Source: Eledone cirrhosa (Eukaryota). Taken from it: a stretch of 64,000 nucleotides of DNA. Position numbers and translations under genes: made by a program. Position 1 is the first letter of the stretch; each line of letters begins with the position of its first letter. Under the pieces are notes generated by a model, which was not told the origin of the DNA, did not search any database, and saw nothing but the letters and a program-made list of their open reading frames with translations. The DNA is taken from NCBI GenBank assembly GCA_964016885.1, contig OZ024745.1:54498001-54562000 (forward strand), read 5' to 3'. This document shows positions 5,129-62,731 of this stretch, one piece after another.

Positions 5129-5900
5129 ACATATACATACATATATACATACATACATACACACATACATACATATATATACATACATATATACATATAC
5201 ATACATACATACATACATACATACATACATACATACATATATACATATATACGCACATACATATATACATACATATATACATACACACATACATACATAT
5301 ATACATACTACATATATGGTGGCTGCCAACTCGTTTTCGAGTACGGCCACTACTTTATATCCATGTCATACTTTATATCCACATACATACATACATACAT
5401 ATATACATTCATACATACTTTCATACATGATGGCTGCAGACTCTGCTAAGAGTATTGCAATCATTTGTTAGAGATCCTTAACAAGCAATTCCTGTGCTTT
5501 GAAGGATTTTTAGTGGGGATACATACATACACACACACACATACACACATGCGTACACACACACACACACACACACACACACACACACACACATATATAT
5601 ATATATATATATATATATATATATATATATATATATATGGAATACTGTTGGCTTTTTGTTACAATATTTTCTATACCTTTCATTTATATATATATATATA
5701 TATATATATATATATATATATATATATATATATATATATATATATATATATATATATATATTAGAAAGTGAGGTTTTTTTACAAAATGAAAAACAACCGA
5801 GGTGTCCTACACGAGTGAAAGTATAAAGAAAAAAAGATGAAATCGAAAATGCAACTGGAGTCTTATTTAAAAAAAAAATATATATGTATTTATTTGGTTC

Positions 5901-5936
5901 CTTTACCGGTTTCGCAGTTCTTCTGCTTTTCAAAAA
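5901..5936 (-). ncRNA. Minimal type I hammerhead ribozyme-like motif (family H1, U3-A8 variant)
   Basis: Minus strand reads UUU-UUGAAAA-GCAG-AAGAA-CUGC-GAAA-CCGG-UA-AAG, within a 210-bp insert (5761-5970) between two (TA)n tracts. Confidence 0.6.
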
Positions 5937-6717
5937 TAGAGTTGAGACGGAGGGTCTGTGGTTTTTCTCATATATATATATATATATATATATATATATA
6001 TATATATATATATATATATATATATATATATGATGCATTTGGAATTTGATGGCCGAGAGCCCCAGTTAGCAGGATTGGTGCATAGTAAATATAGAAATAC
6101 AGTAAAATTCCAAGGAAGTCTCCACGACGTTTCGGTTAAGTTCTCGGCTTCATTTCTATATGCTGGTGATATATAACATGATATTTTACGAAAGTCATTC
6201 ACATTTGGTGGCAGAACCGACTGAATAATATTAACAAGCTTGACCAAGATAATATTTTTCATTCATAATAACGCTATATCAACTTCGATGGAGTGGCCAT
6301 GCCGATGGAATGCACAACTATCGGTTGCACGAACAGCTTTTTGTTTAAATCCCTGAATGTAATAAAGTGCATACTAGTAACTATAAGGAAGAATGTTAAA
6401 GGCATGCTTAAAGGAAATCTTAAAGATTGTAGCATCAATCTTCTGTAAATGGGAATATACATCTAACTACGCATGTATGTATGTTTGTCTCTTTTTCATA
6501 ATCCTGAGTATAATTTTAACTGCCCCTCCCCGGTTGTTTGGTTGAATAGAAAATGAAAATGTTGAGATCTTTTGCGATATATTTTACATAGTCATATTTT
6601 ACAGATTTTGAAGGTTCAAGATATCGTGGCCGCTTGTAGCATATGAATTAGGGAACCGAGTTCTTTTTTCAGAATCCAACTTCAATCATATGTATAACAG
6701 ATCCTTAAGGATCATGT

Positions 6718-6832
6718 TTATTCATATGTGACGTGCGTTTCTATAGAATCTACAAATCTGGTGAGCTATCGATTCCAGAGTCGGGCGCGATGACTACCGA
6801 TCGATCGCTAAACGCGAGTCACATGTGAATAA
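6718..6832. repeat. MITE-like element with ~23-bp imperfect terminal inverted repeats
   Basis: ttattcatatgtgacgtgcgttt pairs with aaacgcgagtcacatgtgaataa. Confidence 0.45.
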
Positions 6833-8069
6833 TCACATTCATGCTATATTGATACTTCGTTCCTGCTCCTTATGATTATTATCTACACTAAACCGACTAG
6901 GGTGTAATACCACATCAGCAATAGGGCTCATATTCGCATTTATTGTTCAAATTGGTAAACCAATAGTAACTATATATATATTAGTAATCTGTGTTATATG
7001 TATGACTACGAGTCTGTATGCCTGTTTATGTCAGCATTTGTATCTATGTTTACGGGCGTAAAGCCGATATTGTTTAACGAGATTGACGTAGTGATTCAAT
7101 AAATATTGATCGATAGAACATGTGCTAAACTGATATCAGTAAAAGAGTTAATGTGATCGATTCAAACTCTTAAATATGCTGCTTTAGCTTGACCGTAATC
7201 CAACGTCAGAGACTGGTAAAATTACATACATACACGAGTACTCACAACACACAGATACACACACTCATATACAAATACACACGCATATATACATATATAC
7301 ATGCATCTATACATTTTCACACACACACACACATATATATATACATACACATACACACACATATACATATATACATACCTACTTGCATGTAAACATTCTC
7401 ACACACACATGTACATATACATATATATATGCTTGTTTTATATGGTTTTTGTAATAAATAAACCAAACATGCACTGAATGAAGGATTTTATAATGTCAAA
7501 ATATTATTTATTTTCAGATATTGTGTTGGATAATATTAGAGTTTACACAAAAGGACTTAAAATACATCAACTAATGCATCAACTGAAATATAAATAACCG
7601 ATACATTCAGAAGTAAAAACAACATTCCACCTATATTTACTTGCTTATATATTTATATATTGACAAGATATATTTCAGTTAATACGGTGAATATTTTTTC
7701 TAAATTCAGGTAATCATTAATTGAGCAGTACTATCGATTATAGCTACCAAATTCTGAAGCACAATGTTTTTAAAATTTGTACCAATGTATGTGTAAACAG
7801 TGTATAATGGTGTTTGGGTTAGTAGTTAGGTGTTTGGTACACAATCGTAAGGATCCGGATTGGATTCCTAGGTGTTCGATGTGTTTCTTGAGGAAGATAC
7901 TTTATTATCCCGTTACACCAGTCCACCCAGCTAAAAAGAATTTAAAAAAAATAATAAATAGCTCCTGTAATTCAAAGTTGCAGCTTTGTCACACAGTGTC
8001 ACAATAATTCTTCATGTGAATTGTCTTAAGAATGAAATAAATGTGTAGTTGAAAAGCTCGGCTACAATG

Positions 8070-59559: not shown

Positions 59560-60662
59560 TAGAGGAGGTTGGGTTGAGGTTTGAGGATGAAAATAACGCT
59601 TATATTGCTTCGTTGGTGTATTACAGAATCACCGTCATGTCATATTCCAAGAAAGACCCCACTAAATTAGAGTGTATGTTCATTCGCTTCTAGTTGGAGA
59701 GAAGTTTCGCGATTGTGTCGAAATGTATCGTGTCAACGTCAAATATAACTGGGTCAGACGATGATGCGAAAAGTGATGCCCATAAACAAGCTAAGGATTA
59801 ATTATTTGCAGAGACTCCTAGAAGACGATGACTGAATAGTTATGTTCACTAATCGCCCCACATATACCTTCAACAGCTGTTTCTTTGATCAAGTAAATAC
59901 CAAACACGAACACTGCGCTGTCATAGCAAGGCCTCTACTCTAAGACGTTCGATGGGCTCAAGAAGCAGAGGTGCAGTCTAGCAATACAGACATAGTTTGG
60001 TCTATGGTGGACCACGTTGAGCGTGTGTTACTCGATCCAAACAGATGTTTGTGGTCTTTCAGCGACAATTTGCTGAACTTTCGGAACGAGTGGTGGGCCG
60101 GAACAACGATTTGACTTCAGTGTTTATCTCGCCACAGCTGTTAGTCTCTGCAATGGAGCCGTGGTGTTGCGAAAATCCGATAACAACAATTGAAATACAG
60201 GACTCTTAGTTTAGCTGCACGATGGGCCAATCACTTGACCTAGATGGTCTGCCCTACAAAATTTACGTTTATAGGCCAGAATTGTTCGGCGACCTTATGT
60301 CAGATATTTAGCACATCTGACAGTAGATTGAGTCAAACTCCAGTTCTGTAAGCCAAGGAACTGTGTCGTTGCTGAGAAAGGAACCGATCAACGGGAACGA
60401 CATAGGTAATGTTCGGCCTATAATTCAAGACTTTGCCAAAAGGATAGCAAACTGTTGGTGCGCTCAAATGGATAGGTAATTTACCGGGAGTCAATACCCA
60501 CTGTGGTATATTTTTTATTGTTATTAATTCATTATTTATTGTTATCTGTTATATTTGTTTGCACGTTTTCAATTATTTTCAATTGTTTGTAAATCCCACT
60601 GTCCCTGTCTTTTCTATTGTTCTATATGTTTTGGCCACTGTGGCCAATAAACAAACTATTAG
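59560..60662 (+). pseudogene. Old, rearranged L1/Tx1-like remnant related to the 47771-52760 element
   Basis: NAYIASLVYYRITV (cf. NAYIASVIYYRLTV), QMFVVFQRQFAEL (cf. QMCEAFQRHFAQL), LDGLPYKIY, VSLLRKEP; similar 3' UTR ending tgtggccaataaacaaactatt. Confidence 0.75.
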
Positions 60663-60874
60663 TATAAAAAAAGCCAAAAATAAAGATTAACTATCAAAAA
60701 TTGTAAGTTATATTTCCACTGTTCCCAAACGTTCAGAGTGAACATTTCAGCGGATTTGGTATTTGTCTTCCATACATACAAGTTGATTTGTAATAGACTG
60801 TTTCCACATCTGTTGATGACTAGGCATCATGTAGTCAAGATGAAATAGTCTACTGCTAATCTCACCAGCTTTAA

Positions 60875-62145
60875 AACTACTGCCACCACAACATCCGCAC
60901 CGCCGCCGCCGCCACCACCACCACCATTACCACCACCACCATCACCACCAAACCTAATTACAATGACCACAAACAGCCTCTCTGGATCGTTTGCAACGCC
61001 GCAGCTGCTACTACTACTACTACTACTGCTGCTGCTGCTGCTGCTGCTGCTACTACTACTACTACTACTACTACTACTACTACTACTACTACTACCACGA
61101 CCACCAACAGCACCACCACCACGACCACCACCACCTATACTACTACTAGAATAATGTACACAACCGCTAATTATGGTAGGACTATAATGTCCACAACCAC
61201 CCCAAGCACCGTTAATACCACGATCACTACAACAGTAACAATTATTACTACTACCCCCATTGTTGCTAAAACAAGTACTGAAACTGATCATAAGTTCCAC
61301 CAGCACCAGCACCACCACCACCATCAACACCATCATCATCTCCACAACCACCACAATCACCATCATCATCACCACCCACCACAACCTCCACTACCACTAC
61401 ACCACCACAACCACCACAATCACCACCACCACAACCACCACCGGAACCACCGCAACCACCACAACCACCACCACCACCACCACCACAACCACCACAACCA
61501 CCACCACAACCACCACAACCACGACTACAACCACCACAACCACCACAACCACCACTACAACCACCACAAACACCACAACCACCACAACCACCACCACAAC
61601 CTCCACTACCACCACTCCACCACAACCACCACAACCACCACCACTACAAACACAACCACCACAACCACCACAAATACTACAAACACAACCACCACCGACA
61701 CAACTTTACTACTACCACCACAACAACCACCATATCAACAACAACACCATCATCATCACCACCACCACCACCACAACCATCACCACTACAAACAACCACC
61801 ACCGACACAACCTTACTACTACCACCACAACAACCACCATATCAACAACAACACCATCATCATCACCACCACCACCACCACCACAATCATCACCACTACA
61901 AACACAACCACCACCGACACAACCTTACTACTACCACCACAACAACCACCATATCAACAACAACACCATCATCATCACCACCACCACCACCACCACAACC
62001 ATCACCACTACAAACACAACCACCACCGACACAACCTTACTACTACCACCACAACAACCAACATATCAACAACAACACCATCAACAACAGCAATAAAAAC
62101 ACCACCACAATGTCCGTCACCAATACTACTAATCGTACAATACTA
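60875..62145. repeat. Compound trinucleotide low-complexity tract (CAC/AAC/CTA/CTG) with ~110-120-bp higher-order repeats
   Basis: The unit start accaccgacacaac(c/t)ttactactaccacc recurs four times between 61690 and 62080. Confidence 0.9.
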
Positions 62146-62520
62146 AATTCACGGTCGATCCATGACAGAAGAGCGCTACATATTATTGCTAGCAAGAAAT
62201 TTATGAGCGATGTGTGTTAGGTGTTATACTGGTCAAGTTGATCTAGACGGAATGGAATGTGAAGTTGTAATTTGATCTAAAAACGAATGTACTTAATGCG
62301 CCACCCACTATCTAGTACATCATTAATTATATAGTCTGTCAAGGAGACTTAAACGCTTTGGTTATTGCGTTGAGAAGTCATATATATATATATATATATA
62401 TATATATATATATATATGTATGTATGTATACATTTAACCCTCCCCCTATATATATATATATGTATATATATATATATATATATATATATATATATATATA
62501 TATATATATATATATATATA

Positions 62521-62731
62521 TAGGAACGAGTAGGACCCCGACGGCTGAGCTCAAGCCGTTTCGACGGCTAATTCTGGACTAAAATGATTTTAGTCCAGAA
62601 TCAGCCGTCGAGACGGCTTGAGCTCAGCCGTCGGGGTCCTACTCGATCCTATTACCCACTCTACTACCCTAAGTATCGAGTACTTTGGTGCGTTATGGTC
62701 CACCTGGTTCCTTACCACATTTCCTTCGTTA
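62521..62731. mobile_element. Family H6 inverted repeat with 5'-truncated HHR halves
   Basis: ~63-bp arms centred near 62586; GAAACGGCUUGAGCUCAGCCGUCGGGGU on the minus arm; (TA)n on both sides. Confidence 0.8.

Follow-up and report, generated by a model that had tools for sequence, protein, structure and literature searches.

Predicted hammerhead ribozymes in truncated Penelope-like element ends, and a candidate retrozyme family, at (TA)n tracts of Eledone cirrhosa

Hammerhead ribozymes (HHRs) are known from the pseudo-long terminal repeats (pLTRs) of Penelope-like elements (PLEs), for which many families per genome and pairs on opposite strands have been published (Cervera and de la Pena 2014, PMC4209133). 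Nearly all families of the Hydra clade of PLEs insert in (TA)n, and this targeting, along with inverted arms and tails, is also in print (Craig et al. 2021, PMC8557442). For the Poseidon element PAc, an in vitro model involves a nick in AT-rich DNA, two internal starts for the reverse transcriptase (RT) that define a tail, and uncleaved RNA as the main template (Frangieh et al. 2024, PMC11167929). Retrozymes have likewise been described (PMC7229834), and their dependence on PLEs has been proposed (Li et al. 2026, 10.64898/2026.07.22.740005). The largest published count that we met is 126,247 HHR motifs in the axolotl, obtained with a different descriptor, and 31 recently active PLE families are reported for Octopus vulgaris in a paper whose main text leaves ribozymes unmentioned (PMC13282606). 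The present analysis concerns 64,000 nt of the Eledone cirrhosa genome (contig OZ024745.1, positions 54,498,001 to 54,562,000; hereafter the window, meaning this whole stretch), in which short HHR-bearing inserts, sorted here into families H1 to H9, lie beside TA microsatellites. The genome is 3.0 Gb in size, the window has a GC content of 37 %, and (TA)n is abundant. No paper on the HHR load of a cephalopod-like genome, or on the PLE insertion anatomy of retrozyme arrays, was found in a search that covered subscription journals poorly. The components described below are all in print, whilst their density and the retrozyme insertion anatomy are new; supplements to the 2026 preprint and PMC8557442 may list some of the families.

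We read the motifs as type I HHRs in the 3′ pLTRs of around ten PLE-like families, with the window copies being short 3′ ends that target-primed reverse transcription probably placed in (TA)n, and put the probability of this reading at roughly 0.9. What carries it is visible in the sequence itself, namely the HHR fold and core, an open reading frame (ORF) upstream, ends at (TA)n, dual 3′ ends, an inverted arm and, in H7, tandem monomers. The HHR motifs are real and abundant, and are mostly ordinary truncated PLE ends.

Within the window, a type I HHR descriptor (stem I, C(U/C)GANGA, stem II, GAAA, stem III, UH) finds eight motifs, against a mean of 0.08 and a maximum of 1 in 100 local dinucleotide shuffles, and none in either the reversed or the complemented window. 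Allowing a U3-A8 core raises the count to nine: 5933 (-), 13780 (-), 18169 (-), 18190 (+), 23758 (-), 28216 (+), 33641 (+), 34501 (+) and 35420 (-). All 19 positions put forward in an earlier note on this stretch fall within HHR-bearing families. Nine of them are the strict motifs; the other ten positions are degenerate, 5′-truncated or outside the descriptor, yet are members of the same families. The motifs at 32661 (-), 33289 (+) and 11675 (+) are typical of their families but lie beyond the descriptor; those at 8868 (-), 33560 (-), 34372 (-) and 27852 (+), the last with C3.A8, carry substitutions; and truncation from the 5′ side reaches into the ribozyme at 8875 (+), has removed C3 at 11987 (-), and leaves the pair at 62523-62649 without any CUGA box. 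The truncated arms at 62523-62649, 35439 and 11987 do not show the full set of boxes and stems, in type I order, that defines such an HHR, and additional partial arms lie at 14375-14463, 33945-34116, 35439 and 62589. The nine families once proposed become ten, since H3 is two (H3a and H3b), and their stems are not all unrelated, as had been supposed: H4 and H8 have stems I and III in common, and H3a and H3b share a stem III region and a terminal motif. Nor are the arms placed tail to tail; they join at their 5′ ends, with the 3′ ends facing outward to TA tracts. The Rfam model Hammerhead_1 (RF00163) matches H9 only, at 35382-35426 (E-value 6e-4, 31.7 bits), below the gathering score of 34 bits that no window motif reaches; amid many false microsatellite and miRNA matches, this is the sole match to a ribozyme model. 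The features are as follows (inverted pairs and composite features are given without a strand; UTR, untranslated region).

5762-5969, minus strand: H1, 5′-truncated 3′ end of a Neptune-type PLE; minimal HHR at 5900-5937 with U3-A8 covariant core and palindromic stem III.
8816-9002: H2 inverted pair, 3′ end of a Hydra-type PLE whose 3′ UTR is rich in microsatellites; HHRs at 8825-8873 (-) and 8875-8918 (+), tail on the plus arm.
9671-10508, plus strand: degraded ORF remnant (linker and GIY-YIG region) of a Hydra-type PLE of another family, from tblastn with the H9 protein (38-47 % identity); no HHR was found downstream of it.
11630-11916, plus strand: H3a, Neptune-type PLE 3′ end; HHR at 11675 with a weak stem I.
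11931-11990, minus strand: H2 arm cut short at the CUGA box, without C3.
13526-13843, minus strand: H3b, 3′ end and tail of a second Neptune-type PLE; HHR at 13741-13785.
14375-14463: old H6-like inverted pair without a CUGA box, absent from the earlier list.
18068-18389: H4 inverted pair, candidate non-autonomous family with a fixed 5′ end; HHRs at 18115-18174 (-) and 18184-18245 (+).
23605-23791, minus strand: H5, 3′ end of a GIY-YIG PLE; minimal HHR at 23727-23761 with a CCGAAGA core.
27600-28034, plus strand: H6, Hydra-type PLE 3′ UTR, HHR at 27847-27940 (long stem II, 6 bp stem III, C3.A8 mismatch) and tail; 5′ limit approximate.
28068-28385: H7, partial retrozyme copy; inverted arm 28068-28165 (-), main arm from 28163 (+), HHR at 28210-28252; right limit approximate.
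32472-33388: H8 inverted pair, Hydra-type PLE 3′ UTR and end; cores at 32661 (-) and 33289 (+), tail on the minus arm.
33410-33834: H5 inverted pair, sitting in the TA tract that terminates H8; cores at 33560 (-) and 33641 (+).
33945-34748: H3b, partial arm 33945-34116 and inverted pair 34122-34748; cores at 34372 (-) and 34501 (+).
35337-35573: H9 inverted pair; intact HHR at 35386-35423 (-), the plus arm beginning within the CUGAUGA box and having a tail.
62523-62729: H6 inverted pair truncated inside stem II, without a CUGA box.

With a density of 141 motifs per Mb, the window is typical of the genome, for which a sample of 10-kb stretches at regular intervals (100 stretches, 1 Mb in all, of which 80 come from the four largest contigs) gave 128 motifs in 39 sequence clusters. 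Ten shuffles of this sample yielded 0-10 matches (mean 3.7), so that the excess is 35-fold. A single tandem array supplies 11 of the 128 motifs, 110 come from the 80 large-contig stretches and 18 from the other 20, and the bootstrap interval is 93-167 motifs per Mb. By extrapolation, the genome likely holds some 280,000-500,000 HHR motifs, in keeping with the very many foreseen earlier. It is scarcely credible that AT-rich DNA full of palindromes would produce these motifs by chance: whilst the descriptor is loose, as the shuffled matches attest, and some singleton clusters are probably false, the size of the excess, features beyond the descriptor and a strict core preference all speak against chance, which is refuted for the families listed. 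Thus a short or palindromic stem III, which the descriptor does not require, occurs in 105 of the 128 motifs. With the fold held fixed, the 3-8 pair is C3-G8 in 102 cases and U3-A8, the covariant core described in PMC4209133, in 19, each of the other 14 combinations reaching five at most; positions 5, 6 and 9 hardly vary and any base may stand at N7, whilst A at position 4 gives 25 loose matches and only two strict ones. The conservation of core nucleotides is thereby borne out, as is TA targeting, with (TA)4 or longer found within 250 nt downstream of 102/128 motifs and upstream of 51/128, against 25 % of random points. A known element end adjoins 167 of 553 long TA tracts (30 %) versus 48 of 570 random points (8 %), the former figure being a minimum, though raised a little by a few loci that overlap. 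With at least this many tracts adjoining such ends, the elements mould the microsatellite landscape, and annotations likely mistake them for simple repeats, miniature inverted-repeat transposable elements (MITEs) or short interspersed nuclear elements (SINEs). A figure for the window only (16/37) was discarded, inflated as it was by loci overlapping the window.

In several respects these motifs resemble the pLTR HHRs described in PMC4209133. In both, a genome has numerous consensus families, most motifs are single and come from truncated PLEs, and pairs on opposite strands lie 100-700 bp from each other; also shared are a palindromic stem III, an extra base between positions 9 and 10.1 and, in H1, the U3-A8 core. 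They differ in load, with about 128 per Mb here against the approximately 9,000 reported there for Xenopus tropicalis and 4,000 for the coelacanth, obtained with different descriptors, and in that some families have a stem II reaching about 80 nt in length or, at stem III, a true hairpin (H2, H6). At L116, L141, L183, L185 and L208 (L numbers denote genomic loci) there are likewise HHR families whose stem II is very long, at about 70-80 nt, some of them linked to Hydra-type ORFs.

On the evidence of their longer copies, eight of the ten families are 3′ ends of coding PLE families, H8 on the strength of one locus. The distance from ORF to HHR is constant in these copies, and seven of the eight linked families show it in at least two independent loci. 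Four are of Hydra type (H2, H6, H8, H9), three of Neptune type (H1, H3a, H3b) and one is unplaced (H5); their window copies are 5′-truncated 3′ ends, often with an inverted arm, that terminate at (TA)n. H9 is young, with 40/40 scored matches being 100 % identical over 94 nt, and at L023 an intact 916-aa ORF stands between 884-nt direct repeats (97 % identical) with an HHR in each. At L021 and L022 a truncated H9 ORF is flanked by inverted arms, and such arms also occur at L024, L048, L326 and L327. GIY-YIG ORFs lie about 130-330 nt upstream of the HHR at several H3b and H3a loci, and a 517-aa frame with RT and endonuclease (EN) lies 1.5 kb upstream in H8, between inverted arms (L048). The link was seen at 2/14 loci in each of H5 and H1, at L062, L189 and L005 for H6, and at L326 and L327 for H2, where it runs through a microsatellite-rich UTR. 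An ORF at L124, at first joined to H2, is that of a different HHR family, and a TA tract lies between the two. Inside H2, the TA/TG microsatellite has itself been a landing site for later PLEs, whose insertion leaves the H2 arms 5-15 kb apart (L327, L328/L329, L330/L331, L171). An automatic classification of 147 loci (46 ORF-linked, 29 tandem, 72 unassigned) under-calls H2, H7, H8 and H9 and was not used as a proportion.

RT together with a C-terminal EN was recovered for H9 (the full 916 aa), H8 and H2, and the EN region only for H1, H3a, H3b, H5 and H6. H9 carries the Hydra-clade marks RWR, DKT and CxCX5C, the last of which recurs in the linkers of H2, H6 and H8, whose N-termini were not recovered, whilst H1, H3a and H3b, though not H5, have a Neptune-type CX4CxxC linker. 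The top homologue of the H9 protein carries PF01541, and the PLE protein has named homologues in molluscs and a bryozoan. Compared with the Hydra clade of C-terminal EN+ PLEs as set out in PMC8557442, H9 shares the RW(R/K), DKT and CxCX5C linker, CxxC and CxH around a conserved E/N, a canonical HHR and insertion in (TA)n; unlike that clade, described there as generally below 3 kb with few members outside cnidarians, H9 repeats at 4.86 kb with its 916-aa frame, and the families here have 3′ UTRs of 1-1.9 kb and are numerous and young. Likewise, H1, H3a and H3b resemble the Neptune clade of the same source in the CX2-5CxxC linker before GIY-YIG, the HHR and a microsatellite bias, a comparison made by linker motif, with RT domains only partly recovered.

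These linkages bear on what the earlier note had concluded. Its association of the motifs with PLEs, and with the inverted 5′-truncated arm that their insertions often carry, is upheld by the ORF-linked long copies, and the joining of family termini to PLE ORFs that it suggested succeeded for eight of ten. Its description of the families as non-coding falls for those eight, and since they are ends of coding PLEs, mobilisation in trans is not needed for them; its retrozyme-like RNAs moved in trans survive for H7 and possibly H4. The stronger version, in which every family is a non-coding retrozyme independent of an ORF of its own and mobilised in trans, would suit the ORF-less window copies, the tandem and ORF-less H7, the fixed 5′ end of H4 and at least four more tandem families in the sample. 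Given the PLE ORF at constant distance, it is improbable overall, being already refuted for H1, H2, H3a, H3b, H5, H6 and H9 and probably for H8. More doubtful still is the view that the TA-flanked inverted repeats are MITEs of TA-targeting DNA transposons with incidental HHR-like boxes: the inverted arms are indeed bounded by TA, but they are unequal, their 5′ junctions vary, many copies have a single arm, the linked ORFs encode RT and GIY-YIG, and the motif excess and 3-8 covariation go unexplained.

The manner of insertion into (TA)n is best seen in the 1-Mb sample, where 3′ ends, counted from the cleavage site, are bimodal in H1 (+80/+142), H2 (about +20/+91), H3b (+157/+211), H5 (+124/+163) and H6 (+20/+97), the alternative ends of a pair lying 40-80 nt apart. 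H3a, for which the reference was faulty, and H7 and H8, whose references end before the tail, do not enter into this comparison. Most arms have a head-to-head partner (e.g. 21/26 in H2 and 28/47 in H6), and there is no accumulation of 5′ ends at the predicted cleavage site, within 4 nt of which only 3/47 H6 arms begin. Because insertions cross this site with no such accumulation, the template was likely uncleaved or re-ligated RNA. At L023 the tail is the sequence directly preceding the ORF, which points to a tandem or circular RNA as template.

Modelled on PAc in vitro (PMC11167929), the process may be pictured as follows. The GIY-YIG endonuclease would nick TA DNA, and the RT would start within the RNA, at either of two positions that lie 20-310 nt 3′ of the ribozyme, and read through the latter; it would usually halt early, with frequent fold-back creating the inverted arm. 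H7 probably borrows PLE protein in trans, acting on multimeric or circular RNA, and H4, though not tandem, may likewise be a non-autonomous family. For the ribozymes of source elements, cleavage is likely to take place in dimers or with the help of protein, whilst most dispersed copies are likely inert. As in PAc, two RT starts would define an optional tail, the target is AT-rich and HHR cleavage appears dispensable for insertion; unlike PAc, whose tail of 30-40 nt lies within the start of the ORF, tails here measure 40-105 nt and that of H9 precedes the ORF.

H7 departs from the eight ORF-linked families. Its monomers, of 454-489 nt and with a single HHR apiece, are arranged in tandem arrays, such as 13 x 489 nt (L172), 6 x 466 nt plus an inverted arm (L173) and six units (L174); its longest Met-initiated ORF has 93 aa, and the monomer shows no similarity to a PLE ORF. 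Head-to-tail ORF-less units with one type I HHR each, as in non-LTR retrozymes, were found in H7 and not, at the loci examined, in the other nine families, so that its DNA structure marks H7 as a true ORF-less tandem retrozyme. Sixty-three ends were examined in the relevant part of the monomer, and the 39 that abut (TA)n all fall at two sites about 60 nt apart, 19 at a short site (+236 to +255, by subfamily) and 20 at +304/+310; of the remaining 24, some run through in diverged copies, whilst others reach the edge of a locus or have imperfect TA after them. Inverted arms accompany the arrays at L102, L111, L112, L113 and L173, and are multimeric at L102, L111 and L173. As ends at two sites and inverted arms are the signature of PLE insertion, mobilisation in trans is supported. 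The alternative that H7 arrays are satellites, expanded locally by unequal crossover from one inserted PLE terminal repeat, is one route proposed in the Discussion of the 2026 preprint; monomers within one array are 96-100 % alike, and those with 13 monomers may have lengthened after insertion. Nevertheless, the dispersal of arrays over many contigs, the two fixed ends in (TA)n (39/39), the inverted and at times multimeric arms and a monomer unlike any PLE ORF make local expansion unlikely. Two H7 contigs of monomer length (470 and 486 nt), from two runs of unspecified kind, are what a collapsed tandem and a circle would both give, and so favour neither.

In its tandem ORF-less monomers with one type I HHR each and a GC content of 36 %, H7 resembles the animal non-LTR retrozymes of PMC7229834 and the 2026 preprint, and its U.U at the base of stem II is as in the axolotl HHR_Amex2. 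As seen in DNA, it differs from them in a monomer length just above their range of 150-450 nt and in its minimal palindromic stem III; arrays with inverted arms, a TA target and 3′ ends fixed at two sites were not encountered in the retrozyme accounts of these two sources. On balance, we consider it somewhat probable that this genome carries one of the densest known HHR loads (about 4 x 10^5 motifs, with at least 39 families per Mb sampled) along with retrozyme arrays inserted whole by a Penelope-type RT/endonuclease from two fixed starts, rolling round circular RNA. If so, this would be direct genomic evidence that retrozymes are mobilised in trans, and a main source of the genome's TA microsatellite clusters would be repeated insertion targeted to TA. 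With H9 (young, intact ORF), an H6 subfamily with a dead-looking core that was still amplified and H7 with mapped start sites, this one genome offers a natural test set for both the role of the HHR in the Penelope cycle and the movement of retrozymes in animals.

For H4, 43/63 arms begin 56-74 nt before the core and none has sequence in common with another further upstream; loci retrieved with a tail query served as a 5′-unbiased set. Two readings fit H4, that of a short non-autonomous family and that of a coding one in which a hairpin strongly arrests the RT. A 4.15-kb H4 tandem on contig C86, considered as a full-length PLE, is a segmental duplication. At least four further tandem ORF-less HHR families were seen, with periods of 310, 465-467, 522-528 and 592 nt, at L218 (C3:190 Mb), L222, L202, L053, L211 and L158, with inverted arms at L053 and L211.

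A number of points weigh against the reading of the motifs as HHRs of TA-inserting PLE families. No PLE partner was identified for H7, nor any ORF amongst the H4 loci examined, leaving H4 without a PLE link, and that of H8 comes from one locus and sister families of the same layout. Pfam detected neither RT nor GIY-YIG in the Hydra-type ORFs, H3a or H3b, and its GIY-YIG cut-off was passed by H5 only; the clade calls accordingly rest on motifs and homologues. Only 2/47 H6 arms extend to the CUGA box, and the abundant H6 subfamily has C3.A8, whereas U3-A8 occurs in the ORF-linked copies at L189, L005 and L327. The spread of this subfamily despite a core that is probably impaired is in keeping with a dispensable ribozyme, although N7 may instead be read as deleted. 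That (TA)n is the insertion target, though likely, is read from the positions of ends, and self-cleavage of the window families is predicted from core and fold. Minimum free energy folds of the monomers mostly lack a three-way junction (z -2.2 to +1.1), which is expected of minimal motifs acting as dimers (PMC4209133).

Amongst other repeats of the window, short fold-back inserts without an HHR adjoin TA tracts at 22789-22881, 29392-29484, 24789-24922 and 34986-35079, and may be the extreme 3′ ends of further PLE families. A direct duplication of 425 nt (62764-63188 and 63396-63820, 99.8 % identical) contains a dispersed family whose end adjoins (TA)n, with relatives at L085, L128, L173 and four random loci. 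It has a conserved CUGAUGA box (62828 and 63460, both on the minus strand) without a GAAA partner; no type I fold fits this box, a permuted reading was unsupported by eye, and the family is possibly a half-core, Naiad-like PLE end. Non-LTR retrotransposon ORFs occupy 38032-41283, 43071-46498, 46833-47480 and 48014-50856, with RVT_1 matched in 38653-41283 and 48014-50299 and the first group flanked by (AAT)n tracts. A 490-nt repeat is present twice (4532-5019 and 12621-13119, 95 % identical) with microsatellites on either side, and a long (CCA)n/(CTA)n trinucleotide array at 60875-62089 has a 112-nt higher-order repeat. Lastly, a SINE-like family of about 190 nt, found in most of the random 10-kb stretches, has window copies at 1506-1696, 21990-22160, 24122-24308, 34779-34965, 52905-53085 and 58594-58786.

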